Of a DNA stretch of 34,899 nt, positions 8,773 to 34,899 are shown piece by piece. Position 1 is the first letter of the stretch; each line of letters begins with the position of its first letter. Position numbers and translations under genes: made by a program. The stretch comes from Candidatus Geocrenenecus huangii. Lineage in GTDB: Archaea; Thermoproteota; Nitrososphaeria_A; Caldarchaeales; Wolframiiraptoraceae. Below the pieces are notes generated by a model. The model did not search any database. It was not told the origin of the DNA and worked only from the letters and a program-made list of their open reading frames with translations. Location of the stretch: assembly GCA_023254095.1 (NCBI GenBank), contig JALNLM010000015.1, positions 1-34,899 on the forward strand, given 5' to 3'.

Positions 8773-10302
8773 GTGAAAGCTGATGCTCCGATTTTGGAAG
8801 TCAGAGGTATTACAAAGAGGTTTCCAGGAGGTGTCGTCGCCTTAGATCATGTAGACCTCGAGATAAGACCAGGCGAGATTCATGCAGTCCTAGGAGAAAA
8901 TGGAGCTGGAAAAACAACCTTGATGAATATTCTCTTCGGAGTATTACAGCCTGATGAAGGAGAGATCTATATCAACGGGAGAAGAGTTAGGTTTAGATCG
9001 CCCTTGGATGCCATGAACATGGGAATAGGGATGGTTCACCAGATCCGAAAACTAATACCTGCCCACACTGTTCTCGAGAACATAATTCTCGGTCACCCAA
9101 AGACTGAAAGTATCATAAATTTGAAGAAGGCTAGGGAAGAAGTGAAAGCACTATGTGAAAAATACGGTTTCAACATAGATCTTGATGCAAGGGTTTGGCA
9201 GCTTTCTGCTGGCGAGCAGCAAGTTGTAGAGATATTAAGAGCTCTTTACCGCGGTGCAAAAATACTCATTCTCGATGAGCCTACTACAGTTCTAACCCCG
9301 TCAGAGGTTGAATCATTCCTGAATTCTATGAAAGCTATGACTAAGGAGGAGATCGCAACTATACCGTTCGTTACTCACAAATTGCCTGAAGTATTTGCTG
9401 TATGTGATAGGATCACTGTGTTAAGAAGGGGAAAAGTAGTAAAGCGCCTTGGAACAAAGGAAGCCACGATGAAGGCTTTAGCTGAGTATATGGTTGGTAG
9501 AGAGGTCCTCTTTAAATTAGAGAAACCTAAAGTAGAGATAGGAGAAGAAATACTTAGAGTAGAAAATCTTTCAGCTTTAAGTGATAAAGGAGTCCTAGCA
9601 CTTAAGGGAGTATCCTTCTCAATAAGGGAAGGCGAGATATTTGGGATTGCTGGAATCGCAGGGAATGGCCAGCAAGAATTAGCTGAGGTTATAGCCGGTC
9701 TCCGAAAACCTCTTGGAGGAAGAATAATCTTCCAAGGGCGAGATATTACGAATGCTTCAGTCCTAGAGAGAATGAAGATGGGGATAGGATATATTCCCCC
9801 TGAGCGTCTAGGAGTTGGGGCGATCGGAAACTTCTCGCTGGTTGAAAACATATTGATGAGCATATACTTTGACCATGAATTCTCCAGTAAAGGATTCTTA
9901 AGCTATAAGAAGATCAGAGAATATGCTAAGAAAATTATCTCCGAGTTTGAAGTAGTAGCTCCAAGCATCGATACGAAGGCAGCACATCTGTCGGGAGGCA
10001 ACCTACAGAGATTGATTCTAGGCCGTGTAATCCCTAGGACCTCAAAACTTCTTATCGCAAACTCGCCTACCGTTGGACTTGATATCGCTGCAACGGAAGC
10101 TGTTAGAAATAGAATACTAAAATGTAAAGAGAGAGGCATGGGCGTACTCCTGATCTCTGAAGACTTAGATGAGGTTCTAGAATTAAGCGATAGTATTGCA
10201 CCAATCTATGAGGGGAGGTTTGTGAGGATATTGTCGGCTGTAGAAGCCAAAAAAGAAGTAGTGGGCGCAATGATGGCAGGTGCATTATCAGGAGGTGGTT
10301 AG
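8773..10302 (+). CDS. Nucleoside/sugar (CUT2, NupA/YufO-like) ABC importer ATPase with two fused NBDs
   Basis: GENGAGKTT, LSAGEQQ, LILDEPT; second degenerate NBD GIAGNGQQE, LSGGNLQ, LISEDLDE. Confidence 0.93.
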   Translation: MKADAPILEVRGITKRFPGGVVALDHVDLEIRPGEIHAVLGENGAGKTTLMNILFGVLQPDEGEIYINGRRVRFRSPLDAMNMGIGMVHQIRKLIPAHTVLENIILGHPKTESIINLKKAREEVKALCEKYGFNIDLDARVWQLSAGEQQVVEILRALYRGAKILILDEPTTVLTPSEVESFLNSMKAMTKEEIATIPFVTHKLPEVFAVCDRITVLRRGKVVKRLGTKEATMKALAEYMVGREVLFKLEKPKVEIGEEILRVENLSALSDKGVLALKGVSFSIREGEIFGIAGIAGNGQQELAEVIAGLRKPLGGRIIFQGRDITNASVLERMKMGIGYIPPERLGVGAIGNFSLVENILMSIYFDHEFSSKGFLSYKKIREYAKKIISEFEVVAPSIDTKAAHLSGGNLQRLILGRVIPRTSKLLIANSPTVGLDIAATEAVRNRILKCKERGMGVLLISEDLDEVLELSDSIAPIYEGRFVRILSAVEAKKEVVGAMMAGALSGGG

Positions 10303-11388
10303 ATGGTTTACCTACAACTTCCAAAGCTTAAACGTGAAAGATTAATAGTACTTACAGGAAAAGAAGCTGTTCTCATATCTATCTCCTCATTAATTGTAGC
10401 CTTCATCATATTCAGCGGGTTCCTAATGCTTGAAGGTGCGACGCCGACTGAAGCATACGGGCACATCTTCACTTTTGCTTTTGATCCAAAGCTAGGGCTC
10501 TCGACAACACTTCACAGAGGGTTCTTCATACTATTCTCGACTCTCGCATTTATAGTCCCAATGTCAGCAGGACTTTGGAATATTGGGATGGAAGGTCAAT
10601 TCTATCTTGGGACTATTGGAGCTTTTGCAGTCGCATATAGTCTACCCAATCTAGATCCTGCACTTCTAATTCCCTTGATGATAACTTCGGGAGCCCTCTT
10701 CGGCGCGGGATATGGAGCCCTAGCAGGCTTCCTAAGAGGAAAGCTGAATGTTAACGAAGTTGTAGCTACCTTGATGCTAAATAACATCGCTTTCTGGCTT
10801 GTTTATTTATTGACTGTTGGAGGCCCATGGGCTGGTATCGCCGAATCGACTAGTCGACCCTTACCCGCATCTGCCCGTGCGCCTATAATCTGGAATACTA
10901 CTTTTACCAGCTTTCTCGCCATAGGGATAGCCATATTACTTTACATCTTTCTTAAGTATTCATCCCTGGGGTATCAGATCCGTGTTTTGGGAAATAGCTC
11001 AGTAGCAGCTAAACACATAGGTATTAGTGCTCCCAAAATAACTATACTAGTAATGTCGATTGGTGGAGCAATAGCTGGGGCCGCGGGCTACCATATGTGG
11101 GCTGGGGACCCTGCCTTCTACATGATCCCGAGACCTGAAGCCTATAAAGCTATCGGCGACCTGACTTACTGGGGGATATTGATAGGACTAGTTTGTCTAC
11201 TTAATTCATTAGCTGCGATTCCATTCACTGTTTTCATCGGCTCGATACTAGTAGGATCCACCGTCCTAGTCAGAAGACTCCGCTTACCCTTCGGTCTTGA
11301 TGTCCTCTTCTTAGGCGTAATCTCTTTGACCTTCGTTGCATTCCAATTCTTCCATAACTATAGAATTAGAAGAATTAGGAGGGAGTGA
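10303..11388 (+). CDS. Nucleoside-type ABC importer permease 1 (BPD_transp_2)
   Basis: AGLWNIGMEGQFYLG, VNEVVATLMLN, GYQIRVLGNS; hydrophobic; directly follows the ATPase. Confidence 0.9.
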   Translation: MVYLQLPKLKRERLIVLTGKEAVLISISSLIVAFIIFSGFLMLEGATPTEAYGHIFTFAFDPKLGLSTTLHRGFFILFSTLAFIVPMSAGLWNIGMEGQFYLGTIGAFAVAYSLPNLDPALLIPLMITSGALFGAGYGALAGFLRGKLNVNEVVATLMLNNIAFWLVYLLTVGGPWAGIAESTSRPLPASARAPIIWNTTFTSFLAIGIAILLYIFLKYSSLGYQIRVLGNSSVAAKHIGISAPKITILVMSIGGAIAGAAGYHMWAGDPAFYMIPRPEAYKAIGDLTYWGILIGLVCLLNSLAAIPFTVFIGSILVGSTVLVRRLRLPFGLDVLFLGVISLTFVAFQFFHNYRIRRIRRE

Positions 11389-12272
11389 ATATCATGTGGC
11401 CATTCATTATCAGGTCTCTAGAAGTGGCTACAATCCTATTACTTGCAGCTATCGGTGAGCTATTGACTCAGAGGTCAGGAATCATTAACGTTGGTATAGA
11501 GGGGCTGATGCTTCTTGGAGCTGCCTCAGGCTTCTTAGCAGCTCTAATATGGGGCATAGTACCAGGCTACGTAGTTGGGATGATTATGGGGGCTCTCTTC
11601 GGTCTCCTACATGCTGTTCTCTCAATAACGTTAAGAGTGAACCAGGTTGTAAGCGGTATGGGAATATGGCTCTTCGCAATGGGCTTCGTAACATACTGGG
11701 CAGATAGATACTCCGGTCCACTACCTCCAGGCGTTGTCTCTTTACGGATATACGGTCTCTCACCACTTTTCTTCATTGGGATCGCCGCCGTTTTCATAAT
11801 CTGGTTCATACTGTCAAAGACTCATCTAGGATTAAAGATAAGGTCTACGGGAGAAAACCCGTTTGCAGCAGAAGTCTCTGGAGTAAAGGTCATTCGGATC
11901 CGTTATGCGTGCACGATTATCGGAGGAGCATTATCTGGTTTAGCAGGAGCATTCCTATCCTTAACATATCTAGGGACTTGGAGTCATCTCCCTACAAAGG
12001 GGTTAGGATGGATTGCATTCGCCCTCGTTATGTTCTCTCTTTGGAGACCTCAAATACTTCTAGGCGGCGCTATACTCTTTGGATTCGTATGGCAGTTCGC
12101 AATCTCCCCTGAGAGCGTATATGCTGGAATCCCAGCCCCACTCCCGATATTGAGGATGCTCCCATTCATTGTTACGATAGTACTACTGGTGATAATCTCT
12201 TCTGAAAGATTTAGAAGAAAATGGTGGCTAGCAAAACCAGAAGCACTAGGAGTACCCTATATCAAAGAATAA
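11385..12272 (+). CDS. Nucleoside-type ABC importer permease 2 (BPD_transp_2)
   Basis: RSGIINVGIEGLML, NQVVSG, RSTGENPFAA, C-terminal PEALGVPY. Confidence 0.9.
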   Translation: MNIMWPFIIRSLEVATILLLAAIGELLTQRSGIINVGIEGLMLLGAASGFLAALIWGIVPGYVVGMIMGALFGLLHAVLSITLRVNQVVSGMGIWLFAMGFVTYWADRYSGPLPPGVVSLRIYGLSPLFFIGIAAVFIIWFILSKTHLGLKIRSTGENPFAAEVSGVKVIRIRYACTIIGGALSGLAGAFLSLTYLGTWSHLPTKGLGWIAFALVMFSLWRPQILLGGAILFGFVWQFAISPESVYAGIPAPLPILRMLPFIVTIVLLVIISSERFRRKWWLAKPEALGVPYIKE

Positions 12273-12464
12273 GAACCGCCTCTCCACTATATATTATCCA
12301 TGTTTTGTACGTTATCAATGTTTTATTTGTTGTTAATATTCTTCTTTTTATTCTTTAATGATTTACTCAGGATATTATCAGATGAGCATACGAGTTTTTA
12401 GATGATTACTGGGGATAGATAAAAAATAGGAGGTATAAAAGTGTATAGATTGCTTGCTTGTAAG

Positions 12465-13877
12465 CTACTTAACTAGCACTATGCCATCTAGCTGGAAGTT
12501 GAGTTTGCCTAAGAGCCAATCGTCTGTCGGCATTACTCCTGCTGGCTTAACTACGGTACCTTTCGGTGGTACATCCAATCCTAGTTCAGGTATCGGGATG
12601 CCTTCTCCACTGCTAACTATCGCATGTTCAGAGAATGGATCATAAGCGCCGATGAGCATCTGCGTTCTTCTCCTATCGATCAGACTCAGTACGTCATCTG
12701 AGATCAAACGTCTTGCTTTCGGGCTGATTGCGTCGAGACCTATCTTGTTATTATTCTGAAGATCTACGGCTGGTAGAATAGTTTCACCTGGTACCCATGG
12801 ATTATCGCCCGGTAGAGGTATATGGTGGTTCATTCCCAAAAAGATCAATCTATCAGGATATTTTGTTCCTGCTAGATACTCTTTCAATACGTGGTAGAAT
12901 AATACTTCCCATCTTGTATCAAATGAGATCGCTACCGTATCCGTTGTTCCCCATCCATAGAGCCCAACTATGTCGGAATCTTTTCCCACGAACCATATTC
13001 CTCTTTCCTCAGCGACTTTAAGAGGTTCAACGGAGTCCGTGTAATGCGTTAAGACGTCAACGCCGAGGTCAACCAATGATTGTGATACTTCTCTCTCCTT
13101 AGGTGGATCATACCATTCTCCAACATATTTGACGTATAGAGTTGCATTTGGGTTAGCATCTTTTATACCTAGGTAGAAAGCCGCCATTCTCCTCCAATTC
13201 TGGACGCATGCTGGGCCTACTGCTATACCGATCTTATTAGTTTGCGTTATTGCTCCTGCTACTAGCCCTTCTAAGTACATTGCTTGATACTGCCTAATGA
13301 AGACTCTTAAGAAATTCCTTTGAGAGGATATATCGCTTCCGACTATTCCCAAGAAGTATACATCTGGATATTCTTGTGATACACTGTGAAAAGCAGGTAT
13401 TGCCGCCGGTTCCCAGCTACCAAAAACGATATTTGCTCCACTAACCGTTATTAAGTCTTTAGCAGAAGAGATCGGGTCTTTACCCTTTAATACAACGCCT
13501 TCATCGTAGACGTAATCAAACCATGGATAAAGCTGTTTTAATCTCTCAACAGCCTTTATTTGTCTGCCATCCCATGTTGAACCCTCGATATACCCACCTA
13601 AAACCATTCCCATAACAACTTTTAACCCCTTTACCACTTCTACCGTTTTAGTCTGTGTTACTGTTGTTGGTACGGTTACCGTTGCAGCACCTGCAGCTAC
13701 GGTTTTTGTCTCTGTTACAGTTGCTGGAGCTCCTGCCATACTGCCTGCGTAGTAGCCTCCAACACCAGCTACTACTCCAGCTATGATGACACCAGCAGCA
13801 ACTTTCCCTGCTGTTGATAAAGCTTCCCTTCGACTAAAATTTCTCGAAAATTTTCTATCTTCTTTTTCTTTAATCAT
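12465..13877 (-). CDS. BMP-family ABC substrate-binding protein with Tat signal and Thr/Val-rich linker
   Basis: SRREAL twin-arginine motif plus hydrophobic stretch; YQAMYLEGLVAGAIT.TNKIG, GEWYDPPKERE, GVDVLTHYTDS. Convergent with the matching ATPase and permeases. Confidence 0.88.
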   Translation of the reverse strand: MIKEKEDRKFSRNFSRREALSTAGKVAAGVIIAGVVAGVGGYYAGSMAGAPATVTETKTVAAGAATVTVPTTVTQTKTVEVVKGLKVVMGMVLGGYIEGSTWDGRQIKAVERLKQLYPWFDYVYDEGVVLKGKDPISSAKDLITVSGANIVFGSWEPAAIPAFHSVSQEYPDVYFLGIVGSDISSQRNFLRVFIRQYQAMYLEGLVAGAITQTNKIGIAVGPACVQNWRRMAAFYLGIKDANPNATLYVKYVGEWYDPPKEREVSQSLVDLGVDVLTHYTDSVEPLKVAEERGIWFVGKDSDIVGLYGWGTTDTVAISFDTRWEVLFYHVLKEYLAGTKYPDRLIFLGMNHHIPLPGDNPWVPGETILPAVDLQNNNKIGLDAISPKARRLISDDVLSLIDRRRTQMLIGAYDPFSEHAIVSSGEGIPIPELGLDVPPKGTVVKPAGVMPTDDWLLGKLNFQLDGIVLVK

Positions 13878-13911
13878 AGTTATATTAGGATATTTGTCTA
13901 ATATAAAGTTT

Positions 13912-13923: not shown

Positions 13924-14015
13924 TAAGAATCAACAAGCTTACCGATTAAGTCAGTTTTCTAAGAATGTCTGAAATGTAAATAGTTAAAATAGAGGGAAGG
14001 AGTATATTACTAGCA

Positions 14016-14918
14016 ATGCTGTTGCTCTGTCATTGTGTACTAAATGTAAACTCTAGAGCTCCTGGAATTGCTCGTTGGAGTAACATTATTAAACCTGTCT
14101 GGGATATTATTAGAGCCCGGAATCTACAGTTCATTCAACTTCCATGTCTCGAAGCAGCTTATCTTGGTTTAAGAAGATGGTGGTTCGTTAAAGAACAATA
14201 CCGTAATGCTCTCTTCAAAGATTTATGCCAGACTATTGGAGTCGGTATCTGCGAGATCTTAAAGAAGAATAATGTGAAAAAAGTTAAGTTAATTGGATTG
14301 GGAATAAGCCCAACATGCGGATATAGAGAAACTCAAAGCGACCCATCTTGGGGTGGAAAACCGAGGGAAGTCAACTTGAAAAACAATATAACCGAGGGTC
14401 CAGGAATCTTGATAGAGATATTGAGTAAAATTCTTAAAGATTATGGATTCATATACGAGGTCTACGATCTACCACCTTGTATGATATATCCCGACGAGAG
14501 AGCAGGGGTAAAAAAGTATCCGAGAAATTTTGAAGAATCCATTGAAGAAGTCTCTGAGTTCCTAGGATTTGATTACAGGTCACTTGAACTATCCGAATAC
14601 GATAAATTCATTAATTATGATATTAGGTCTGGTAGAATCTTCATTTGCCCGCATGAGGCACTTGTAGAACAACACAAGGTTGTGGACAGATATATTGAAG
14701 ATGGATATGGGTTGATATCGATTCCAAGGTCGAATACTTTGACTTTTGAGGAAAAAGAGGTTGCGAGGATATTCGCATTACAAGTTGAGAATCATCTAGA
14801 TGTAGGTCATCAAGTCATTCTCTACAGATACGAGAAATATTCTGCTCTATTCGATACGCTAGTGGAGTTCCTGAAAGACCGAAACTTATTAGAGAAAATA
14901 TCCATAATATCATTTTAG
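14016..14918 (+). CDS. TudS/DUF523-related (CD3072-like) putative [4Fe-4S] desulfidase with C-terminal extension
   Basis: CHCVLN, QLPCLE, GLRRW..KEQY and GISPTCG supply the three Cys motifs of the 2-thiouracil desulfidase family. Confidence 0.75.
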   Translation: MLLLCHCVLNVNSRAPGIARWSNIIKPVWDIIRARNLQFIQLPCLEAAYLGLRRWWFVKEQYRNALFKDLCQTIGVGICEILKKNNVKKVKLIGLGISPTCGYRETQSDPSWGGKPREVNLKNNITEGPGILIEILSKILKDYGFIYEVYDLPPCMIYPDERAGVKKYPRNFEESIEEVSEFLGFDYRSLELSEYDKFINYDIRSGRIFICPHEALVEQHKVVDRYIEDGYGLISIPRSNTLTFEEKEVARIFALQVENHLDVGHQVILYRYEKYSALFDTLVEFLKDRNLLEKISIISF

Positions 14919-15032
14919 GCCAATCATATATCAGAATTTTATGAGGCATATATTGCAATCAAATAATTAGATCTGTCATGTTATCTCGCTTAGTAATCGG
15001 ATGTAAAAATATGGAGGTTGGAAAGTTGAGGG

Positions 15033-15854
15033 TTATTTTTCGTTAGCGAATGCTACTATTCGGGCGAAGGCTGATTCGCCATCCTGGAACTTGAATGGAA
15101 ACGCTCCTATTATACATCTTCTGTTAACTACTTTGCTTATTTCTCCTCCCAAGTTCTCAGCATGTAATATCATTTGCGGGAATAGCTTAAGATGCATAAG
15201 CTGATAGTTTTGTGGCCATGGCATCAACTCATCTATTTTCTTACCCCACTTCTTTTCTGCCTCAGCTACTAAGTCGGGCCTCGCCCTTCGAATCACTGTA
15301 TTGAGTGGATGATCGGCTGACATAGCGTCTACACCGATCCATTTTATCTTTTTGTCAATACACCATTTAGCAAAGCTTTCATTGGGACCAGGATGTTTCA
15401 CCATGTATCTAACTTCATCAGGTTCGGTTCCGCACCAAGCATATTTATGATATCCCGTATGGATTATGAGTATATCTCCTCTCTTAATCTCTACACCTCC
15501 GTCTTTTGCAGCTTTCTCTATGGTTTCTGAAGTATAGATATCGTAGTCTCCAACATATGGAGAGATATCTACCACTACTCCTTCACCGACTAGATAGTCT
15601 TCTAATGGGAGACTTGCTACGTCTTTTCCACCTGTCACGAAATGCATCTGACTATCGAAATGTGTTCCGAAATGTAGCGATGTCTCTATGTACTGAGCGT
15701 TTACTCCATGTTCTCCGAGAGTCTTGATCCAGTAGACTTTCATAGGGGGATACCACATGAAAGGCGGTTGCTTCCAGCTAGTCGGCTGAGATAGGTCATA
15801 AATCCTGACTTTACTCCAATCTACTATCTTACTCCAGTCTAAGGTCATGATCAC
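15033..15854 (-). CDS. Cyclase family metal-dependent amidohydrolase (kynurenine formamidase/isatin hydrolase fold)
   Basis: HFGTHFDSQMH (HxGTHxDxPxH variant), GDILIIHTGY, IGVD..SAD, HAENL, RIVA. Confidence 0.92.
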   Translation of the reverse strand: MIMTLDWSKIVDWSKVRIYDLSQPTSWKQPPFMWYPPMKVYWIKTLGEHGVNAQYIETSLHFGTHFDSQMHFVTGGKDVASLPLEDYLVGEGVVVDISPYVGDYDIYTSETIEKAAKDGGVEIKRGDILIIHTGYHKYAWCGTEPDEVRYMVKHPGPNESFAKWCIDKKIKWIGVDAMSADHPLNTVIRRARPDLVAEAEKKWGKKIDELMPWPQNYQLMHLKLFPQMILHAENLGGEISKVVNRRCIIGAFPFKFQDGESAFARIVAFANEK

Positions 15855-16008: not shown

Positions 16009-16449
16009 ATGAAACTCGAAGGTAGAATACTCCTAAGATCTCATATAGAAGACGTCTGGAATTTTATATCAGAACCTACAAAAGTTATAGAGTGCGTACC
16101 AGGTGTTCAAGATTATTCAGTAGCCGAGGGAAAAAGGATAATAGCAAAAGTTAAAGTAAGCATAGGCTTCATTAAGGGAATCTTCCATGCATATAGCAAC
16201 GTCATCGAAGAAGACCATGAAAACTATAAGGCGAAATTGAGGTTGAACGGATCCGGTGCAGGAAGTGGTTTTGATGCATTGGTGGAGATAAAACTAGGTG
16301 AGTTAGGTTCCGAAACGGAGTTAGCATGGATGGCCGATGTAAGTATTTCAGGCCCTCTCGGAAGTCTCGCAAGACCAATGTTAGAAGGATATGTTAGAAA
16401 GATAGTCGACCAGCTCTTTGACTGTATTAAGCATAAGCTTGCAAATTAA
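16009..16449 (+). CDS. coxG: CoxG/SRPBCC family protein
   Basis: VWNFISEPTKVIECVPG, GSGAGS, ADVSISGPLGSLA; precedes the Mo-hydroxylase operon. Confidence 0.88.
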   Translation: MKLEGRILLRSHIEDVWNFISEPTKVIECVPGVQDYSVAEGKRIIAKVKVSIGFIKGIFHAYSNVIEEDHENYKAKLRLNGSGAGSGFDALVEIKLGELGSETELAWMADVSISGPLGSLARPMLEGYVRKIVDQLFDCIKHKLAN

Positions 16450-22512: not shown

Positions 22513-22517
22513 CCCAA

Positions 22518-24786: not shown

Positions 24787-24963
24787 TGAAAGTAATTGTT
24801 CTGGTAGGCAACATATGTAATATTCTTTTCGAGCGTTCCACAAGATTATTGAAGAAACCGTATTATCTGTCAAGTATTTTCCTTTCAAATGTATCGAAAA
24901 TGTTTAAAGGTTTTCTCTTTGAACATTTTAGTGAGATTAGTCATGGTTTGGAGAGCTGTTATT

Positions 24964-27405: not shown

Positions 27406-28989
27406 ATGAGTGAAAAAACCGATAGAACTACGGAAGAGTTAATAAACGAGTTAAATGAGATGAGGAAGAAATCTTTACTTGGTGGTGGAGTAGAAGCAAT
27501 CGAGAAACAGCATCAAGCAGGAAAACTAACAGCAAGAGAGAGGATCGATATACTACTGGATAAAGATAGCTTCATAGAACTAGACTCTTTCATGGTACAT
27601 AGGGCCGCTGAATTCGGCATGGATAAAAGGAGAGTCTTAGGCGATGGGATAGTTACGGGTCTAGGAAGGATAGATGGAAGATTAGTCGCCGTTTTCGCTC
27701 AAGATGCTACTTTCATGGGAGGGTCAATAGGCGAGATTCACGCCAACAAGATCTCTAGGATCCTAGATCGTGCAATGGAGTTGGGGGTGCCGATAATAGG
27801 CTTAAACGATTCTGGAGGTGCCAGAATCCAGGAAGGAGTTGCGTCTCTCCACGCTATAGGAGAATATTTTGCTAGAAATGTTAGAGCGTCAGGTGTGATT
27901 CCCCAGATCACTCTGATAATGGGGCCATGCGCTGGAGGAGCAGTGTACTCTCCAGCTCTTGGAGATTTTATCATAATGGTTGAGAAGACTAGCTACATGT
28001 TCATTACGGGGCCACGAGTAGTGAAAGCCGTAATGGGTGAGGATGTTTCTTTCGAGGAGCTGGGAGGGGCTGATGTCCATGCAAAGATATCCGGGGTCGC
28101 CGATTTCACAGCACCGAACGATGTTGAAGCATTAAATCTGGTTAGGAGGCTAGTGTCCTATCTTCCATCAAACTGTCTTGAAGAACCGCCATTCATTGAT
28201 ACTGGAGACCCACCAGATAGAATGAACGAAGAATTAAACTACATGATCCCTGATGATCCACGCAAGAGCTACAATATAAAAGATTTGATAAATCTCATAT
28301 TCGACAAAGGTACTTTCCTAGAGGTTAAAAAAGATTTTGCACCGAATGCAGTAGTAGGATTTGCAAGGTTAGCTGGAATGGTTGTAGGAGTTGTGGCAAA
28401 CCAGCCTGCATCACTGGCAGGTGTTCTAGATATAGATTCTTCTGATAAAATTGCTAGATTTGTTAGATTCTGCGATTGCTTCAACATCCCTCTAATAACG
28501 TTTGTAGACGTGCCAGGATATCTACCTGGGACGAAGCAAGAACATGGAGGAGTAATAAGGCATGGAGCGAAGGTTATCTTTGCTTATGTTGAGGCAACTG
28601 TCCCGAAGATCTCCGTCATCGCTAGAAAAGCTTATGGTGGAGCCTATATTGCGATGTGTAGTAAAAGCTTGGGGGCAGATATGGTCTTCGCCTATCCTAC
28701 AGCTGAGATAGCGGTTATGGGTCCTGAAGGTGCAGTAGAAATAATTTATAGGAAAGAAATAGATTCGGCGGAACCCTCAAAGAGGGAAGAGATTATAGCT
28801 CAGTTGATCAAAGAGTACAGGGTAAAGTTTGCGAACCCCTATGTCGCAGCAGGCCTAGGATACATTAACGCGGTAATAGAACCTAAAGAGACTAGGCCAA
28901 TGCTGGTTAAAGCTTTAAAGACATACATGAAAGGTAAGAGAAGCCTAGTATCAAGGCTTCCGAAAAAGCATGGTAACATTCCACTATGA
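27406..28989 (+). CDS. mmdA: Acyl-CoA carboxyltransferase (methylmalonyl-CoA decarboxylase alpha / PccB-like)
   Basis: GKLTARERI, DSGGARIQEG, GPCAGGAVYSP, VDVPGYLPG, RKAYGGAY, KKHGNIPL; abuts the decarboxylase beta gene. Confidence 0.9.
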   Translation: MSEKTDRTTEELINELNEMRKKSLLGGGVEAIEKQHQAGKLTARERIDILLDKDSFIELDSFMVHRAAEFGMDKRRVLGDGIVTGLGRIDGRLVAVFAQDATFMGGSIGEIHANKISRILDRAMELGVPIIGLNDSGGARIQEGVASLHAIGEYFARNVRASGVIPQITLIMGPCAGGAVYSPALGDFIIMVEKTSYMFITGPRVVKAVMGEDVSFEELGGADVHAKISGVADFTAPNDVEALNLVRRLVSYLPSNCLEEPPFIDTGDPPDRMNEELNYMIPDDPRKSYNIKDLINLIFDKGTFLEVKKDFAPNAVVGFARLAGMVVGVVANQPASLAGVLDIDSSDKIARFVRFCDCFNIPLITFVDVPGYLPGTKQEHGGVIRHGAKVIFAYVEATVPKISVIARKAYGGAYIAMCSKSLGADMVFAYPTAEIAVMGPEGAVEIIYRKEIDSAEPSKREEIIAQLIKEYRVKFANPYVAAGLGYINAVIEPKETRPMLVKALKTYMKGKRSLVSRLPKKHGNIPL

Positions 28990-30087
28990 TCAAAAATATG
29001 CTGGAAGTAGAGATAATACAATAGCTCCAGCGATGACAGAGGTTATCTGACCTCCAGTGTTTGCAGCCATTGCATGCATTAGTATCCAGTTATCAGGGTC
29101 TTCTTGCCTAGCGATGAGATGAGCTGTTCTCGCAGCCATCGGGAAAGCTGAGATACCCGTTGCGCCAATCAATGGATTTATCCTACCCTTAGTAAGGTAA
29201 TATGCAAGTTTAGCTGCAAGGAGACCGCATGATAAATCTGCGATGAAGGCGAAGACACCGAGGGCGAAGACTATTAATGTTGACAAGCTTATGAATTTTT
29301 CTGCCAACATAGTTCCACCGATACTAATACCTAGTAGTAACGTCACAATATTGGATAATTCATTTTGAGCCGATTTCGACAATCTTTCAACCACGCCGCA
29401 TTCTTTCAAGAAGTTTCCAAACATTAACGCCCCTATTAATGGGATACCCTTAGGAGCTATCAAGCCTATGATGACCGTTACCAGTACAGGGAAGATGACT
29501 TTAAGAGTTCTTGAATACTGTCCCTCCTTGTACTCCATCCTTGTAAGTCTCTCTTTCTTGCTTAGAAGTAGTTTCGACGCAGGTACTTGGAGAAGAGGCA
29601 CGATCGAGATGTACGTATAAGCTGAGACAGTAACAGGTCCTAGCAAGTCTGGTGCATATTTTGATGTTACATAGATTGCTGTTGGCCCATCCATTGCGCC
29701 GATTATACCTATGCTAGCAGCTTCACCAGGACTGAATCCCAAGGCTATGGCTAAGAGCATCGTTAAGGGAATTCCTAGATGTGCAGGTATTGTAATTAAG
29801 AGAACCCACGGGCGTTCAAAGAATGGGCCTAGGTCTATCATGGCTCCAATGCCTATGAAGACCAATATTGGGAATATCTCCGTGAGTATTCCGTAATCGT
29901 ATAGGTATCTAAGGAACCCTCCTAGCTCCATTAATTCCCCGAAAGGTATGTTTACTAAGATAGCTCCGAAGCCGATTGGTACCAAGAGGAGAGGCTCATA
30001 CCCTTTCTTAATCGCTAGATAAATAAGAATTGAGCCTACAGCGATCATTATTGCGTTGCCTGCATATGTCGTCAATGGATCCATCAT
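28990..30087 (-). CDS. mmdB: Na+-translocating decarboxylase beta subunit (OadB/MmdB)
   Basis: YEPLLLVPIGFG, IGIIGAMDGPTAIY, NPLIGATGISAFPMAAR, HAMAAN. Confidence 0.93.
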   Translation of the reverse strand: MMDPLTTYAGNAIMIAVGSILIYLAIKKGYEPLLLVPIGFGAILVNIPFGELMELGGFLRYLYDYGILTEIFPILVFIGIGAMIDLGPFFERPWVLLITIPAHLGIPLTMLLAIALGFSPGEAASIGIIGAMDGPTAIYVTSKYAPDLLGPVTVSAYTYISIVPLLQVPASKLLLSKKERLTRMEYKEGQYSRTLKVIFPVLVTVIIGLIAPKGIPLIGALMFGNFLKECGVVERLSKSAQNELSNIVTLLLGISIGGTMLAEKFISLSTLIVFALGVFAFIADLSCGLLAAKLAYYLTKGRINPLIGATGISAFPMAARTAHLIARQEDPDNWILMHAMAANTGGQITSVIAGAIVLSLLPAYF

Positions 30088-30096
30088 GGATTCACC

Positions 30097-30486
30097 CTAC
30101 TCTATCTCGACCAATGCTTCTCCTGCATTAACTGAAGCTCCTTCGGAAACATACACTCGCTTAACTCTACCTGATACGGGAGAATAAATTTCGTTCTCCA
30201 TCTTCATGCTTTCCAAGACTAGCAGAGGATCTCCAGCTCTAACATTATCGCCTTCCCTACATTTTATTGAAACGATCGTGCCCGGGATAGGTGCTCGGAC
30301 TAAACCCGGCGCTTTCGCTTTCTCGATCTTAGATTCAGGTATAACGGTCGGAACAGTTCTATGTTCCCCTATAGGAGCAGGAGCGGGTGAAGGTGTAGGA
30401 GCTGCAGGTAATTCTTCTATACCAATCTCCTCAATCTCGACTTCAAATACTTTGCCTCCTACTGTAACTCGGAATCTCCTCTTCAA
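30097..30486 (-). CDS. mmdC: Biotin carboxyl carrier subunit (ORF open to 30504)
   Basis: FRVTVGGKVFEVEIEE, Pro/Ala linker, APIPG, biotinylation motif ESMKM; TTG 30486 follows SD GGGGAG. Confidence 0.92.
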   Translation of the reverse strand: MKRRFRVTVGGKVFEVEIEEIGIEELPAAPTPSPAPAPIGEHRTVPTVIPESKIEKAKAPGLVRAPIPGTIVSIKCREGDNVRAGDPLLVLESMKMENEIYSPVSGRVKRVYVSEGASVNAGEALVEIE

Positions 30487-30487
30487 C

Positions 30488-30817
30488 CTACTCTCCCCCT
30501 TCATATCTTGAAGAATACAAAATGCTTGAAATCTTCCAGAGCGACGTTGTAGGCGTTAATGGTTCTCTTATATACTTGTTTTTTACCGGCAGAGATAACG
30601 TTGTGATAACAGCACTTAATCCTGCGATTAGTTCAAGGTCTTCTTCACCGACTTCTTCTTTCGATTCTGTTTTCTCCTCAATTTCTACAGCTTTAGAAGG
30701 CATGACTCGTCTGAGAAGGTAAGTTATTAGTAGTATTAGGAGTACTCCACCGGTAAGGAGTGCAAGCCATCCCAAAGTAAAACCGAACCCTAAATTTAGG
30801 TCTTCCATTAAGACCAT
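30488..30817 (-). CDS. Decarboxylase membrane-anchor subunit (OadG/MmdD-like)
   Basis: Single N-terminal TM helix, EEDLELIAGLSAVI, SLWK; first gene before mmdC and mmdB. Confidence 0.75.
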   Translation of the reverse strand: MVLMEDLNLGFGFTLGWLALLTGGVLLILLITYLLRRVMPSKAVEIEEKTESKEEVGEEDLELIAGLSAVITTLSLPVKNKYIREPLTPTTSLWKISSILYSSRYEGGE

Positions 30818-30853
30818 GGAATCAAAAATAAAGACCGACTATTTTAATATTAC

Positions 30854-30865
30854 ATTTATATAGCT
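30854..30865. promoter_or_regulatory. Candidate regulator site ATTTATATAGCT upstream of the decarboxylase operon
   Basis: 10/12 match to AGCTATATAGCT; 37 nt from the 30817 start. Confidence 0.35.
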
Positions 30866-30967
30866 TATTGAGAAGCATGATGCATTCAGGTCAATGTCGA
30901 TTAGCCACGTTATTGTTGAACTTCACATAGCTGAATCTTAATTAATAAATTTCAAGATTGACTAATC

Positions 30968-31723
30968 GTGGCGAGGATGGTTAATCTCGGAGATTTCGAG
31001 ATCTACTTCTATGACCTTGTTGATTCTACCCAAGACTTAGCTAGAAATCTTAGAGAGGCTAAGGAGTTTACTACAATAGTAGCTAGAGAACAAAGTAGGG
31101 CTCGTGGTAGATTTGGTAGAAGATGGTGCTCTCCTGTAGGTGGATTATGGTTTACAACTATTCTTTATCCTAAGACCAGTATATCGACTTATTCTATTCT
31201 CTGCTTACTTAGCTCATTATCCGTTGTCGAAGCAATAAAAGACCTTACGAGTATTGAAGCCTTTATCAAATGGCCTAACGACGTGTATGTGAGTGGGAAG
31301 AAAATTGCAGGTATTCTCGTAGAGTCAGAGGTATTTGGTGATATAATTGAGAGAGCGATAGTGGGAATAGGGTTAAACCTCAATTTTCGAATAGACGCAA
31401 TACCGGGCGAACTCAGGAATAAAGTGACCACGCTCCTTGAAGAATATGGTAAGCCAGTGCACACGGAAACTCTCCTACTAAGAATACTGAATGAATTAAA
31501 GAAGAATTATGAAAAGTACAAGATCGGAGCCTATTCTGAATTGATTGAAGCTATAAAGAGTGATATGGAGATTCTAGGTAGGGAGGCCGTGGTCTCTCTG
31601 AGCCATGGAGAAATATTAGGAGTAGTTAGAGATCTTGATATTGACGGCAACCTTATCTTCGAGTCATCAGGTGGAAAGATTGTTATTAAACCTTCAGAGA
31701 TTAAGAAGCTGGAACTTGTTTAG
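30968..31723 (+). CDS. birA: Biotin-protein ligase (class I, no HTH)
   Basis: DSTQ, QSRARGRFGRRW, KWPNDVY, KKIAGIL, GIGLNL. Confidence 0.94.
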   Translation: MARMVNLGDFEIYFYDLVDSTQDLARNLREAKEFTTIVAREQSRARGRFGRRWCSPVGGLWFTTILYPKTSISTYSILCLLSSLSVVEAIKDLTSIEAFIKWPNDVYVSGKKIAGILVESEVFGDIIERAIVGIGLNLNFRIDAIPGELRNKVTTLLEEYGKPVHTETLLLRILNELKKNYEKYKIGAYSELIEAIKSDMEILGREAVVSLSHGEILGVVRDLDIDGNLIFESSGGKIVIKPSEIKKLELV

Positions 31724-32282
31724 CTCTAAACCTGGCTATCATCTGCGAGAACTCTTTCCTCCTCAAGAGATATAGTATAAACGCTATCTTTAAACCATCT
31801 CCCGGGAGAAATACTAGTGAACCCGCTACTATCCCTCTGGTAATTGCTTCAGAGAATTCTAATCCTGCAAAACTTGAAAGCCAGAAGATCAACCATGGAA
31901 CACCGAGACCGTAAATAATCACTTCAGCTAAGATGCATGCTACTAACCCTTTGAATATCTGGTCGCCACTCGAAGGATTATAGGTTAAACCAGCAGTAGC
32001 GGCAGCAATGGGAAAAGATATTAGGTATCCAGCTGTAGGTCCTTGGAATGCTGTGAAACCACTTCTAAAGCCTGCGAATACTGGTAGCCCAATCAAGCCC
32101 ATCGCCAAATATATTGATTGAGATAGAAGACCTACAGTGAACCCTCCGACTAAACCTGAAAGTATCACGAAGAAAGATTGTAAAGTTATCGGAACTGGCC
32201 CAATGTAGAAAGCGAGCTGTGCGCCTAGAGATGTAAGGACTGCGAAGATACTTGATATAGTTATTACACGTCCTCTAACCAT
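31701..32282 (-). CDS. bioY: Biotin transporter BioY
   Basis: PVPITLQ, GLIGLPVFAG, GPTAGYLISF, FLPGD..K. Confidence 0.94.
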   Translation of the reverse strand: MVRGRVITISSIFAVLTSLGAQLAFYIGPVPITLQSFFVILSGLVGGFTVGLLSQSIYLAMGLIGLPVFAGFRSGFTAFQGPTAGYLISFPIAAATAGLTYNPSSGDQIFKGLVACILAEVIIYGLGVPWLIFWLSSFAGLEFSEAITRGIVAGSLVFLPGDGLKIAFILYLLRRKEFSQMIARFRAKQVPAS

Positions 32283-32357
32283 GCCTAGTACTAAAATTTA
32301 TCTCGATTTAAGATTAATTTCCAAAAAATAACAAAATAATAAAATGTGTATGTTTGT

Positions 32358-32828
32358 CTACTTCTTTGCTTTAGAAACACTTAAGATGGCTTCTATTATT
32401 GGTCTGTAGCCTGTACATCTGCAGAGAAGACCGTTAAGAGCTTCTACTACTTCTTCCTTTGAAGGTCTTGGATTTCGATTGATAAGCCAGTGACCTACTA
32501 TTAGGAATGCTGGTGTGCAGAATCCGCATTGTAGTGCTCCATGCTCTATGAATGCTTTCTGTAGCTCTGTGAGTTCACCGTCTCTTGACAAACCCTCAAC
32601 AGTAACAATCTCAGAACCATCAACCTCAACAGCAAGAACAAGACAAGACTTCACAGGCTCTCCATTCAGTAAGACAGTGCACAATCCGCAATCTCCTCTT
32701 TCACAGGCTTTCTTTGTTCCTTTCAATTTGAGTTCTTCCCTTATGAGCCATAGAAGAGTCTTATTCGGTGCAACCTCAACAGTTTTCTCAACGCCGTTTA
32801 TTTTAAAAGTTATCTTCTTTTTCTCCAT
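32358..32828 (-). CDS. Molybdenum hydroxylase [2Fe-2S] (small) subunit 2
   Basis: GTKKACERGDCGLCTV, QCGFCTP, LCRCTGY. Confidence 0.95.
   Translation of the reverse strand: MEKKKITFKINGVEKTVEVAPNKTLLWLIREELKLKGTKKACERGDCGLCTVLLNGEPVKSCLVLAVEVDGSEIVTVEGLSRDGELTELQKAFIEHGALQCGFCTPAFLIVGHWLINRNPRPSKEEVVEALNGLLCRCTGYRPIIEAILSVSKAKK
32505..32654 (-). repeat. 150-bp repeat, copy 2 (inverted, identical to 19955-20104)
   Basis: Reverse complement identical to 19955-20104. Confidence 0.93.
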
Positions 32829-33689
32829 CTACACAACCTCCACCATCTGCTTTAACAATCTTCTAGTTAAGACCTTTACCAAGTTCAATCTGTACTCTGC
32901 ACTTCCTCTAACATCTGATATGGGTGAAACCCTCTGTGATGCTACTTGAACTGCTCTCTCTATCCTTTCTTCCATCGTCCCATCTCTCGTAAAAGCTTCT
33001 TCCGCTTCTCTTATTCTTAGAGGTGTCGGAGCTACGCTAGAATAGGCGAGCCTGACTCTTAATTCTCTTCCCTCTCTATACCCTAAACCGGCAACTCCTA
33101 CTATGGCTAGGTCTTCACTCCAAACCCTCATCATCTTGAGATATCTTCCGAAAGAATTACTTGGAGGCTCGGGAACAACCACCTCTTTTACGACTTCTCC
33201 CGACCTCAATATAGTCTTCTTAACGCCTGTGAAGAACTTGTCTATTGGAACTTCCCGAGAACCTTCCTTACTTACTATCCTCACATTTGCTTCGAGGACT
33301 AGTAGAGCTGGAGCGCTATCTGCTGCAGGGCTTGCATTACATATGTTGCCTACGAGAGTTGCTCTATTCTTTAGGATTACGTCTCCGATAGTTTTTACAG
33401 CTTCCCATAAAACTGGATACTTCTCTCTGATTAGCTGAGATTCTAGAATCCTTCTAAGAGTGACTGTAGCACCTATTATCAGCCCCTCACCTTTTCTGTA
33501 TTCGAGCCTATCCAATTCTTTGATTTTCTTAATATCTACGAGATGTCTAGCTTTCTCCACTCTATCTCTTAATGATACTAGTAGGTCGGTACCTCCAGCC
33601 AATATCTTTGCCTTCTCTTGATATTTCTCTAGTACCTCGAATAATTCTTCAAGAGTCTTAGGAGATGAATATTCAAGTTTTGGAAGCAT
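32829..33689 (-). CDS. Molybdenum hydroxylase FAD (medium) subunit 2
   Basis: ILAGGTDL, KNRATLVGNICNASPAADS, ISDVRGSAEYR. Confidence 0.94.
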   Translation of the reverse strand: MLPKLEYSSPKTLEELFEVLEKYQEKAKILAGGTDLLVSLRDRVEKARHLVDIKKIKELDRLEYRKGEGLIIGATVTLRRILESQLIREKYPVLWEAVKTIGDVILKNRATLVGNICNASPAADSAPALLVLEANVRIVSKEGSREVPIDKFFTGVKKTILRSGEVVKEVVVPEPPSNSFGRYLKMMRVWSEDLAIVGVAGLGYREGRELRVRLAYSSVAPTPLRIREAEEAFTRDGTMEERIERAVQVASQRVSPISDVRGSAEYRLNLVKVLTRRLLKQMVEVV

Positions 33690-33693
33690 TTTT

Positions 33694-34899
33694 TCACTCC
33701 CCCTTGTTTAGTGCCCTCCATATATTTTCAAAAGTTAATGGTAGATTGTTAATGTTTATCCCAGTAGCGTGGAAGATAGCATTCGCGACAGCTGGTGGAA
33801 CCGATAGCATAGCAAGCTCCGCTACGCCTCTAGCCCCATAAGGCCCATCCTTTTGAGGGTTCTCTATTACTACTATCTCATATTCTTCAGGTATATCTCC
33901 CGCTCTAGCTATCTTGTAATCTGTTAGATTTGGATTAAGCATCTTTCCATTCTCATCATACCTATACTCTTCCCACATTCCTAAGCTGAGAGATTGGACT
34001 CCTCCCCCAATTATCTGTCCTTCAACAAGGAGAGGGTTTACTGCTTTCCCAACATCGAAGGCGGAAACGATTTTTAAGATCTTTACTTCACCCGTCTCTT
34101 CATCCAGCTCGATCTCTACGGCTTGAGCTCCAAAAGTCCATTTGAGAGCTGGGTACCCTTGACCCGTCTCAGGGTCTAGATACGTCAACCTACTTCCTAC
34201 ATAGTATCCACGGCCGATTATCGGTCCTCCGATAGTATTCCCGTCTGGATATACGTATCCAGCTGCTAAATCCTTCAAATATATACTCCATTCAGGTCTT
34301 CCCTTCACGTATACTTTCTCATCTTCTATTACTAGATCGTCTTTCGGAGTTCTCAGAACCTGAGAAGCTATATCTAGTATCTGCTCCTTAGCATCTCTTG
34401 CAGCCCTAATCACGGCCCTGCCTTCCATGAATAGGTTTCTACTTGCAACAGTCTGCCAAGAGTATGGTGTTAGATCGGTATGTCTAAATGGAACTACCTT
34501 TATCTTCTCTACAGGGACGCTAAGCTCTTCAGCGACTATCTGAGCTAGTGCCGTAACTGTTCCTTGACCTATCTCTGTCACCCCTACTGATAAGAGAATA
34601 GTCCCATCCTCATTCAGTTTGATTATTGCTGCTGATGCAGCGTTAGGAGGCATCGCAGGCGCTTTCCAAAGTGCAGCGATACCCTTCGCTCTAACCTTGC
34701 TTGAACTGATTTTCACAGGTGGGGTGCCCCAGCCAATCTTCTCAGCTACAGCTCTAATACATTGGTCTACTCTACCAGCATCTTCTCTCAATTTTTCACC
34801 TGTAGCAGTAGTAAGACCTGGAAGGAGAGCGTTCTTTAATCTAAATTCGACGGGATCCATCCCAATCTCTGCGGCCACTATCTCCATCTGCCTTTCTAT
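33694..34899 (-). CDS. Molybdenum hydroxylase large subunit 2, 5' part outside the window
   Basis: Frame open to the window edge; MDPVEFRLKN, GQGT, TVASR, YLDPETGQG, GARGVAE; paralogous to 16510-18906. Confidence 0.92.
   Translation of the reverse strand: MERQMEIVAAEIGMDPVEFRLKNALLPGLTTATGEKLREDAGRVDQCIRAVAEKIGWGTPPVKISSSKVRAKGIAALWKAPAMPPNAASAAIIKLNEDGTILLSVGVTEIGQGTVTALAQIVAEELSVPVEKIKVVPFRHTDLTPYSWQTVASRNLFMEGRAVIRAARDAKEQILDIASQVLRTPKDDLVIEDEKVYVKGRPEWSIYLKDLAAGYVYPDGNTIGGPIIGRGYYVGSRLTYLDPETGQGYPALKWTFGAQAVEIELDEETGEVKILKIVSAFDVGKAVNPLLVEGQIIGGGVQSLSLGMWEEYRYDENGKMLNPNLTDYKIARAGDIPEEYEIVVIENPQKDGPYGARGVAELAMLSVPPAVANAIFHATGININNLPLTFENIWRALNKGE

Follow-up and report, generated by a model that had tools for sequence, protein, structure and literature searches.

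A gene island of Candidatus Geocrenenecus huangii that may serve the breakdown of a cyclic ureide nucleobase

Introduction

In the classical oxidative pathway of pyrimidine breakdown, which operates in aerobic actinobacteria, the bases are degraded by uracil/thymine dehydrogenase, barbiturase and ureidomalonase. The dehydrogenase and the ureidomalonase have been described as activities since the 1950s to 2000s, and we know of no genes for them. Here we describe an island of genes at positions 8773–34899 of a 34,899-nt contig (C28) from the hot-spring archaeon Candidatus Geocrenenecus huangii. The entire contig is the window referred to below, and the 1.61-Mb, 96% complete assembly to which it belongs is called the own genome. 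The island encodes a cyclase-family metal hydrolase, AllF-, AllG- and AllH-like subunits, two Mo-hydroxylases and an ABC importer. Judged from sequence, it may represent the archaeal version of a pathway that is widespread, has yet to be characterised and degrades a cyclic ureide nucleobase, with uracil and/or thymine as the most likely substrate. For this reading we find the balance about even.

The closest described relative of one part of the island is the AllFGH complex of Escherichia coli. This complex forms oxamate and carbamoyl phosphate from oxalurate and phosphate, and its operon includes carbamate kinase (PMC11326118). Mo enzymes like those of the island are labeled aerobic CO dehydrogenase in a Caldarchaeales genome paper (PMC10547907); in the passages covered of this and of a second Caldarchaeales genome paper, purine or pyrimidine breakdown is not mentioned. 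No paper on a cluster of cyclase, AllFGH and Mo-hydroxylase genes, or on a phosphorolytic route for barbiturate, was found in a search of main texts that covered few subscription journals.

Results

The core of the island recurs in distant genomes

Genes were identified by Pfam and NCBIfam profile searches of the window proteins with curated cut-offs. The families named in the sequence-only reading, an earlier annotation of this DNA made from its letters without database searches, were found in their places, with the exception of its TudS-like and MmdD-like labels. G, L and C numbers below denote genomes, loci and contigs.

One genome per species was scanned with an alignment of eight cyclase orthologues, which gave 546 relatives; the best 80 loci were kept. 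The window proteins were searched by tblastn within about 10 kb of each cyclase gene, and the counts are lower bounds, many contigs being short. AllG was found in 50 of the 80 loci, FdrA (the AllF family) in 53 and a Mo-hydroxylase large subunit in 60. AllG or FdrA was present together with the large subunit in 42 loci, and at least one of the three in 75. This recurrence of the core at the cyclase orthologues indicated that the genes are grouped beyond chance. The other companions were CoxG (25 loci), BMP/ABC importer genes (21), MoaD (17), a cytosine-deaminase-like amidohydrolase (11), a TudS-like protein (10) and a GNAT-like protein (9).

The carriers were Caldarchaeales, Desulfurococcales with Pyrodictiaceae, Bathyarchaeia, Hadarchaeales, Chloroflexota, Clostridia, Thermotogae and several other bacterial phyla. 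Clostridium rhizosphaerae and Lutispora saccharofermentans are cultured carriers. Most of the organisms with the module are anaerobes and thermophiles, unlike the aerobic actinobacteria of the classical pathway.

The AllG family is rare on the whole. Within the order, it was found in 20 of the 61 genomes searched (60 relatives and the own genome); among 14 control genomes, one had it. The cyclase and FdrA genes were always close to it, and Mo-hydroxylase genes and the BMP-ABC importer were frequent around it (four families). The complete genome of a member of another family (G040) contained a cluster composed of AllG, cyclase, FdrA, AllH, a GNAT-like open reading frame (ORF), a Mo large subunit and a 467-residue carboxyltransferase, the rest being a second Mo set, MoaD, the cytosine-deaminase-like amidohydrolase, an ABC importer and two BMP genes, with housekeeping genes on one flank.

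The proposal of a single catabolic module made up of importer, Mo-hydroxylases, cyclase-type hydrolase and AllFGH-like complex was borne out in that its core recurs across phyla. As for the co-occurrences that had been expected, cyclase did travel with FdrA and AllG, and the decarboxylase (Mmd) genes recurred in three other lineages; the prpB/prpD pair was confined to the genus, and the association with TudS/DUF523 was weak.

An AllFGH-like complex in a genome lacking detectable allantoin-route genes

All three subunits were matched in Pfam, and their genes lie together on the minus strand except for an intervening MoaD-family ORF. The AllF/FdrA-like subunit (20450–22087) matched PF00549 and PF02629 and gave 404 bits with NF004760 (cut-off 433). 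The AllH/DUF2877-like subunit (22518–23516) matched PF11392, and the AllG/DUF1116-like subunit (23464–24732) matched PF06545 with 295 bits. AllG and AllF were 45% and 30% identical, respectively, to the E. coli proteins, and AllH was too diverged for tblastn against its E. coli counterpart. A motif scan for the FdrA phosphohistidine loop gave no match in the window protein; the E. coli protein was equally without a match.

The likeness to E. coli AllF-AllG-AllH and AllK (PMC11326118) extends to a bona fide carbamate kinase in the genome. This gene (arcC, above its cut-off) is not in the island but on contig C22; in six of the 80 related loci, a carbamate kinase gene lies next to the module. 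On C22 (L049:9385-15677) the genes for the carbamate kinase and a HAD hydrolase come directly after those of a second BMP-ABC importer, all on one strand, which hints that the cargo of that importer also ends as carbamoyl phosphate.

Unlike the E. coli genes, the module has no linkage to allB, allC, allD or allE, and is tied instead to the cyclase-family hydrolase and the Mo-hydroxylases. By analogy, its substrate is probably the next higher homologue of oxalurate, ureidomalonate. Homologues of AllC, AllD and AllE were absent from the 80 loci. In the own genome, tblastn with the E. coli AllD, AllE and GlxK proteins gave no match, AllC gave a weak partial match only, and neither the Ldh_2/AllD family nor uricase was found. 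The single match to the allantoinase model there was probably PyrC, because it also passed the dihydroorotase model and lay near pyrB. With these genes missing, an allantoin route as the source of oxalurate was ruled out for the own genome. The sequence-only reading had raised the prospect of a full allantoin pathway elsewhere in the genome, which was looked for and not found.

A conserved cyclase subfamily

The candidate ring-opening enzyme (15033–15854, minus strand) matched PF04199 with 124 bits (cut-off 23). It contains the motif HxGTHxDxxxH, of which the histidines and the aspartate were invariant in eight orthologues, and identity across Caldarchaeales families was 47–84%. The family and the motif are shared with kynurenine formamidase and cyclase-family metal hydrolases of solved structure (PDB 1r61, 4co9 and 4cz1). 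Unlike these proteins, to which it is distant (E 6.5e-07 to 1e-04), the window cyclase is about 60 residues longer and belongs to a separate, highly conserved subfamily tied to AllFGH. The AtzD/barbiturase family (PF09663) had no match in the own genome and likewise none in the 14 control genomes.

Three related loci (L076, L078 and L084) carry two cyclase-family copies adjacent to or near each other. This pairing suggested two ring-opening specificities.

Two Mo-hydroxylases without the marks of CO dehydrogenases

The first Mo-hydroxylase set is on the plus strand and consists of the large subunit MoL1 (16609–18906; PF01315, PF02738 and PF20256), an FAD subunit (18903–19781; PF00941 and PF03450) and a [2Fe-2S] subunit (19784–20263; PF01799 and PF00111). 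The second set is on the minus strand, with a [2Fe-2S] subunit (32358–32828) and an FAD subunit (32829–33689) of the same families, and the C-terminal part of the large subunit MoL2 (33694–34899; PF20256), which is cut by the contig end. The Mo/FAD/[2Fe-2S] subunit architecture is thus present in the sets. The terminal 127 nt of the window (34773–34899) overlapped exactly with the 3' end of contig C17 in opposite orientation, and the end of C17 (L048:18755-19993) encodes the N-terminal part of MoL2. From this exact overlap we concluded that MoL2 is one intact gene of approximately 770 residues and that C28 and C17 are neighbors.

MoL1 scored 459 bits with the xanthine dehydrogenase model XdhA_XDHase (cut-off 780), 444 with PRK09970 (916), 389 with pucD (784) and 305 with xdhB (850). 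With two CO dehydrogenase models it reached 339 (cut-off 950) and 293 (cut-off 991), and both large subunits were below the cut-offs of these models. A scan with what we take to be the form I and form II CoxL active-site motifs gave no match in MoL1 or in either part of MoL2. A CO dehydrogenase identity was rejected on these scores together with the missing motif.

A FastTree phylogeny of 68 large subunits, built without characterised reference enzymes, contained three cyclase-linked clades. MoL1 and MoL2 fell in two sister clades (A1 and A2), and two further paralogues of the own genome fell outside. The residue following GGGFGxK was A, I or V among 63 cyclase-linked large subunits. Active-site typing by this residue was dropped and no conclusion drawn, the E. 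coli XdhA protein itself being without the Glu expected of xanthine dehydrogenases.

Companions of the module in other genomes

All ORFs of the 80 loci were clustered de novo and searched against Pfam, NCBIfam and PDB. An amidase-signature enzyme was present in 18 loci, from Anaerolineae, Chloroflexia, other bacteria, one Methanobacteriota metagenome-assembled genome (MAG) and one Caldarchaeales MAG. Its best solved relative was malonamidase E2 (2e-49, nearly full length). A family III CoA-transferase was present in 14 loci and lay between AllG and the cyclase in three loci of Clostridia. It was nearest to succinate-hydroxymethylglutarate CoA-transferase (405 bits), well ahead of formyl-CoA:oxalate transferase (Frc; approximately 187 bits).

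NCS2 permeases were found in 11 loci, and seven of them were scanned. The permease of Clostridium rhizosphaerae was a uracil permease at the equivalog level (639 bits, cut-off 477); the best match was uracil permease in four of the seven and xanthine permease in three, and all but one were below the cut-off. The Amidohydro_3 gene of the module, which is cytosine-deaminase-like, was found in G040 in addition to the 11 loci mentioned above, and directly follows the island in G003 (L149:19464-20000). On contig C6 of the own genome (L136:8876-18735), a cytosine-deaminase-like amidohydrolase gene has an aldehyde:ferredoxin-oxidoreductase-like gene as its neighbor, and a third BMP homologue is encoded nearby.

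Methylmalonyl-CoA mutase was encoded in five of the 80 loci, from four groups. A Clostridiales MAG locus (L081:168-20693) combines the nucleobase module, the mutase and a complete Mmd pump in an array of about 20 kb on a single strand. It runs Fe-S, Mo large subunit, NCS2 permease, PucR-type regulator, AllH, FdrA, AllG, cyclase and CN-hydrolase, followed by CoA-transferase, MobA-like, mutase, B12 subunit, MeaB, epimerase, MmdA, OAD_gamma, MmdC and MmdB. A thiolase-like gene, nearest to archaeal acetoacetyl-CoA thiolases, was present in 13 loci, mostly of Anaerolineae, and we give it no role. The own genome has four PNP_UDP_1 nucleoside phosphorylase genes.

As predicted from their sequences, these companions together would fit an order of base import, hydroxylation, ring opening, transfer of the carbamoyl group to phosphate, hydrolysis of an amide of the (methyl)malonamate type, CoA transfer and use of (methyl)malonyl-CoA.

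A probable biotin-dependent decarboxylase within the island

Between the AllFGH-like genes and the second Mo-hydroxylase set lie genes for a decarboxylase and its biotin supply. The MmdA-like acyl-CoA carboxyltransferase (27406–28989, plus strand) matched PF01039 over its full length and scored 789 bits with TIGR01117 (cut-off 999). MmdB, the beta subunit of Na+-translocating decarboxylases (28990–30087, minus strand), scored 385 bits with TIGR01109 (cut-off 191). The MmdC-like biotin carboxyl carrier (30097–30504, minus strand; PF00364) contains SMKM, which we take to be the biotinyl-lysine motif. The biotin-protein ligase BirA (30968–31723, plus strand) passed TIGR00121 (166 bits, cut-off 83). 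The gene for the biotin transporter BioY (31701–32282, minus strand; PF02632) lies 75 nt downstream of the [2Fe-2S] gene of the second Mo set and shares its strand.

The small membrane protein orf109 (30488–30817, minus strand) may be a delta/gamma anchor subunit. It has a single N-terminal hydrophobic helix, and a homologue was at the same place in three relatives (G003, G007 and G002). It had been labeled MmdD-like, but with this one helix and no Pfam or NCBIfam family match the label was not sustained.

In its alpha carboxyltransferase, beta pump, SMKM carrier and small membrane protein the set is like the Na+-translocating methylmalonyl-CoA decarboxylase of the Veillonella and Propionigenium type. 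Unlike that enzyme, it has the AllFGH genes on one side and a Mo-hydroxylase operon on the other, its MmdA is below the TIGR01117 cut-off, and no mutase was found in the genome. Both methylmalonyl-CoA mutase (PF01642 and tblastn) and biotin carboxylase were sought without success in the 96% complete own genome. Mmd is therefore the only detected biotin enzyme, without a feed from succinyl-CoA, and is not part of a succinate-to-propionate route here.

MmdB was found in nine of the 61 genomes of the order, namely in six of seven genomes of the window's genus, in the own genome, and in two of three genomes of another genus that lacks AllG. Within the window's genus, the Mmd cassette was always on the AllG contig wherever that contig was long enough. 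Outside the order, in four loci of Bathyarchaeia the genes for MmdA/B/C, BirA and BioY were interspersed among those for MoaD, cyclase, CoxG and the two Mo sets, in a different gene order and with BioY directly preceding the cyclase. BioY is on the operon strand beside module genes in both archaeal groups. Mmd genes also adjoined the core in one Clostridiales and one Geothermarchaeota MAG locus. This recurrence outside the order supported a functional link. Two findings went the other way: the cassette MmdC-MmdA-BirA-(BioY)-MmdB stood alone in two relatives without AllG (G036 and G039), and 13 of the 20 AllG-positive genomes searched (19 relatives and the own one) lacked MmdB. The coupling to a Na+-pumping decarboxylase, as first proposed, therefore stood with respect to its recurrence in three other lineages and was qualified by these exceptions; on balance, we consider a functional coupling of the module to Mmd fairly likely. 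The link of the module to a biotin decarboxylase in archaea appears to be new, and the literature search yielded no description of it.

In the clusters of the Caldarchaeum type (L022:7275-8678 of G040; L060, L061 and L077) the 467-residue carboxyltransferase was a paralogue 43% identical to MmdA, and MmdB was not found in the 11 other genomes searched of the family of G040. Judged from its sequence, this paralogue may perform a biotin-independent or trans-acting decarboxylation step.

Methylcitrate genes as an optional addition

The methylisocitrate lyase PrpB (24889–25872, plus strand) passed TIGR02317 (407 bits, cut-off 354). The MmgE/PrpD-family dehydratase (25860–27221, plus strand) matched PF03972 and PF19305 and was below the cut-offs of the NCBIfam PrpD models. 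Outside the window's genus the two genes were not seen next to the module; within it, three of the 80 loci and G007 had them there. A second prpB/prpD pair, 90% and 94% identical to the island copies, is on contig C30 (L139:512-4496), where it is preceded by a 2-methylcitrate/citrate synthase II gene (prpC); the island itself has no methylcitrate synthase. The C30 copy may have arisen by duplication in the recent past or by gene conversion, or may come from a strain that was binned together with this one.

In the closest species (G003, L052), prpB and prpD were absent between AllG and MmdA, the gap being 319 nt in both. This absence and the second copy on C30 make the methylcitrate link a recent, optional and genus-specific addition, compatible with thymine-derived propionyl-CoA and not evidence for it. 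The coupling to the methylcitrate cycle, a prominent part of the sequence-only reading, was weakened accordingly, and we now regard it as rather doubtful.

Importer and accessory proteins

The ABC importer is encoded on the plus strand by an ATPase gene (8773–10302; PF00005, two ABC_tran domains) and two BPD_transp_2 permease genes (10303–11388 and 11385–12272; PF02653). The BMP/PnrA-like substrate-binding protein (12465–13877, minus strand; PF02608) has an N-terminal anchor in which two arginines precede a hydrophobic segment, resembling a signal or anchor of the twin-arginine type. The ATPase gene was beside the BMP gene in relatives as well. The island also encodes a CoxG/SRPBCC accessory protein (16009–16449, plus strand; PF06240).

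The small MoaD-family protein with a GGG end (22219–22584, minus strand), encoded between FdrA and AllH, had been overlooked in the sequence-only reading; it passed TIGR01687 (61.8 bits, cut-off 49.5), and its true start is probably near 22512.

The product of 14016–14918 (plus strand) appears distantly related to TudS, of the CD3072 type, in about residues 1–185 and carries an additional C-terminal domain. It scored 96 bits with NCBIfam NF045597 (TudS_rel_CD3072; cut-off 130, E 1.5e-27). DUF523 (PF04463) had no match in it or anywhere in the own genome. Its AlphaFold model, based on a 9-row alignment, had a pLDDT of 80 and a pTM of 0.84; Foldseek with this model returned poor two-domain matches only, none of them convincing, and a family profile gave no match to solved chains with HMMER. 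A VIA structure search with residues 1–185 gave the thiouracil desulfidase TudS (PDB 6z92) as the top match, with Z 7.7, below the level of 8 that is called clear, rmsd 3.9 and 143 of 150 residues aligned. Cys7, Cys44 and Cys71 were invariant in nine homologues, and Cys101 was present in seven of the nine. A likeness to TudS is suggested by the top structural rank for the N-terminal domain, the sub-threshold family score and the conserved cysteines. Against it stand the missing DUF523 match, a Z score below 8 and the added 115-residue C-terminal domain, which was found in this genus only.

A 246-residue GNAT-like ORF on contig C17 (L048:17910-18650) belongs to no Pfam family. Its modeled fold appeared to contain a domain like that of GNAT acyl-CoA N-acyltransferases (best E 7e-07, TM about 0.5–0.6). 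In the nine loci with homologues, the usual neighbor was the cyclase-linked Mo large subunit.

Borders and transcripts of the island

On C17, the GNAT-like ORF beyond MoL2 marks the end of the island and is followed by the replication genes for Cdc6 and RFC. On the other side, outside the island, positions 1272–8626 of the window contain genes for tRNA-Asp, Thi4 and a DUF1464 protein, as well as a PadR regulator gene accompanied by a pair of ABC-2 exporter genes; in a related MAG (L054), the exporter set is likewise a neighbor of the importer. The borders of the island showed no integrase and no other mobility gene. The window cyclase and MoL1 were 93–95% identical to counterparts in MAGs of Candidatus Geocrenenecus and other Caldarchaeales.

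In two metatranscriptome libraries from one study, contigs with 90–99% identity lay on BMP, cyclase, CoxG, MoL1, FdrA, AllG and MmdA, and covered 24 and 20 of 30 bins. Positions 14401–15067 and 30409–32399 were uncovered in both, although such contigs cannot show absence, level or strand. This is a sign that a close relative transcribes the island, and a weak one because DNA carry-over is possible and contigs give no level.

Discussion

What was observed is the identity of the genes, the recurrence of the core across genomes and the failure to detect genes of an allantoin route. The genes can be arranged in a scheme in which a BMP-type ABC system would import the base or its nucleoside. The two Mo-hydroxylases of the xanthine dehydrogenase family, with CoxG, would then oxidise the ring, converting uracil or thymine to barbiturate or 5-methylbarbiturate, and the cyclase-family hydrolase would open it to an N-acylurea, ureidomalonate or ureidomethylmalonate. 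The AllF/AllG/AllH-like complex would move the carbamoyl group onto phosphate, as E. coli AllFGH does with oxalurate, and carbamate kinase, encoded elsewhere in the genome, would turn carbamoyl phosphate into ATP. The remaining (methyl)malonamate would be deamidated and activated to (methyl)malonyl-CoA by enzymes encoded outside the island. In this lineage the Na+-pumping, biotin-dependent MmdABC, served by BirA and BioY, would decarboxylate it to acetyl- or propionyl-CoA, and PrpB and PrpD would take up thymine-derived propionyl-CoA as an optional, genus-specific step.

This scheme is like the classical oxidative pathway in having a three-subunit Mo/FAD/Fe-S enzyme followed by hydrolytic ring opening, with a C3 dicarboxylate set free in the end. 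Related loci contribute genes that fit it as well, for the uracil permease and for cytosine-deaminase-like and malonamidase-like enzymes, and the possible distant relative of TudS is a further hint at pyrimidines. Unlike the classical pathway, a cyclase-family enzyme takes the place of barbiturase here, and by analogy with AllFGH, phosphate would cleave the ureide into carbamoyl phosphate and an amide, whereas hydrolysis gives urea and malonate. Catabolism of a ureide with formation of carbamoyl phosphate is the part of the scheme that we consider quite probable. The narrower claim of a route through pyrimidine and barbiturate is favored slightly. The logic of pyrimidine to (methyl)malonate proposed in the sequence-only reading thus survived with the help of the related-locus genes, and its desulfuration by TudS and its outlet into the methylcitrate cycle came out weaker than proposed.

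Several findings weigh against the pyrimidine scheme. Every substrate and every reaction in it we infer. The counts from the 80 loci overstate independence because many of the loci are mutually related. The Mo enzymes cannot be placed by phylogeny because no reference sequence of a uracil/thymine dehydrogenase is known to us, and neither large subunit reaches the cut-off of any NCBIfam equivalog model. For the middle steps of the scheme, no gene for an amidase or a CoA-transferase lies in the island, to which AllFGH-like cleavage and CoA activation had both been assigned; the candidates in the own genome for an amidase (C5) and a CoA-transferase (C11) are unlinked and below cut-offs. In L081, the adjoining mutase, epimerase and Mmd genes might just as well form a module that leads from succinate to propionate. 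The assignment to TudS is a weak one. The island had also been described as archaeal in character, and the module is not archaeal-specific because Chloroflexota, Clostridia and other bacteria carry it.

Some of the remaining counterpoints belong to an alternative in which a purine or other ureide is routed to oxalurate. The substrate of the Mo-hydroxylases would be a purine, with xanthine going to urate, or else a ring of the imidazole or hydantoin type. The cyclase would open a five-membered oxo-ring such as that of parabanate to oxalurate, AllFGH would act as in E. coli to give oxamate and carbamoyl phosphate, and the Mmd and Prp genes would be roleless neighbors. The sole characterised AllFGH, to which the window AllG is 45% identical, uses oxalurate (PMC11326118). 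The XdhA-type xanthine dehydrogenase was the best-scoring NCBIfam model for both large subunits, xanthine permease was the best match of three of the seven NCS2 permeases scanned, and the loci of Clostridia carry a regulator of the PucR family, which is named after purine catabolism. Family III CoA-transferases also include oxalate enzymes, and YfdE and Frc were among the solved relatives of the linked one; yet the linked enzyme is nearer the succinate-dicarboxylate enzyme than Frc, and the linked amidase is nearest to malonamidase E2. AllD, AllE and uricase were not found in the genome, with AllC a weak partial match, and AllC, AllD and AllE are missing from the 80 loci. No family like oxalyl-CoA decarboxylase was among the 25 largest gene clusters of these loci, all of which were labeled by window homology or Pfam. 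The uracil permease, cytosine-deaminase-like, methylmalonyl-CoA mutase and Mmd genes would have no role in an oxalate route. We consider this alternative unlikely.

Alternatively, the chemistry may be as described with another urea-bearing N-heterocycle as substrate, such as a modified or thiolated pyrimidine, a 5-substituted uracil, an orotate-like compound or hydantoin, uracil and thymine not being the natural substrates. The three cyclase-linked clades of Mo large subunits, two of which occur in many loci, suggest several hydroxylations or substrates, and the paired cyclases of L076, L078 and L084 and the TudS-related and GNAT-fold proteins that travel with the module would accord with this. 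On the other hand, the equivalog-level uracil permease and the malonamidase-like amidase point to plain bases, and the conserved gene clusters of the 80 loci included none typical of side-chain removal. Such a substrate appears still less likely than oxalurate. That the island is a chance mosaic of CoxLMS-type CO or aldehyde dehydrogenases, a propionate unit of Mmd/BirA/BioY and PrpBD, and an independent AllFGH unit is very improbable. In its favor, Caldarchaeales papers annotate such genes as aerobic CO dehydrogenase (PMC10547907), two relatives (G036 and G039) have the Mmd cassette by itself, and prpBD is inserted in part of one genus only. Against it, cyclase, AllFG and Mo-hydroxylase genes co-occur in many phyla, neither large subunit has the CO dehydrogenase active-site motif or reaches a model cut-off for that enzyme, and two archaeal groups that differ in gene order both have Mmd and BioY interspersed among the genes of the module.

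If uracil and thymine are indeed the substrates, the module would provide candidate genes for uracil/thymine dehydrogenase and ureidomalonase. It would also give the newly described AllFGH transcarbamylase family a second class of substrate, and the very conserved cyclase subfamily a first catabolic role. The routine CO dehydrogenase labels of these Mo enzymes in Caldarchaeales (PMC10547907) would be corrected. Clostridiales of the L081 type are a good candidate group of organisms for experiments. Specific to the window would be the archaeal coupling to a biotin-dependent Na+ pump in a genome in which its usual feeder, methylmalonyl-CoA mutase, was not found.

Most broadly, and tentatively, since we hold this to be somewhat less than an even prospect, many uncultured archaea and anaerobic bacteria may share an energy-conserving catabolism of pyrimidines. 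It would use a new, cyclase-family type of barbiturase and an AllFGH-like ureidomalonate carbamoyltransferase in place of hydrolysis to urea, and yield one ATP per uracil or thymine by way of carbamoyl phosphate. An extra Na+ gradient would come from a dedicated biotin pump decarboxylating (methyl)malonyl-CoA in Caldarchaeales of the Geocrenenecus type and in Bathyarchaeia, and some of the so-called form II CO dehydrogenases of such genomes would be uracil/thymine dehydrogenases. Thermophilic archaea and anaerobes would then draw ATP, and here perhaps also a Na+ gradient, from the nucleobases of dead cells.

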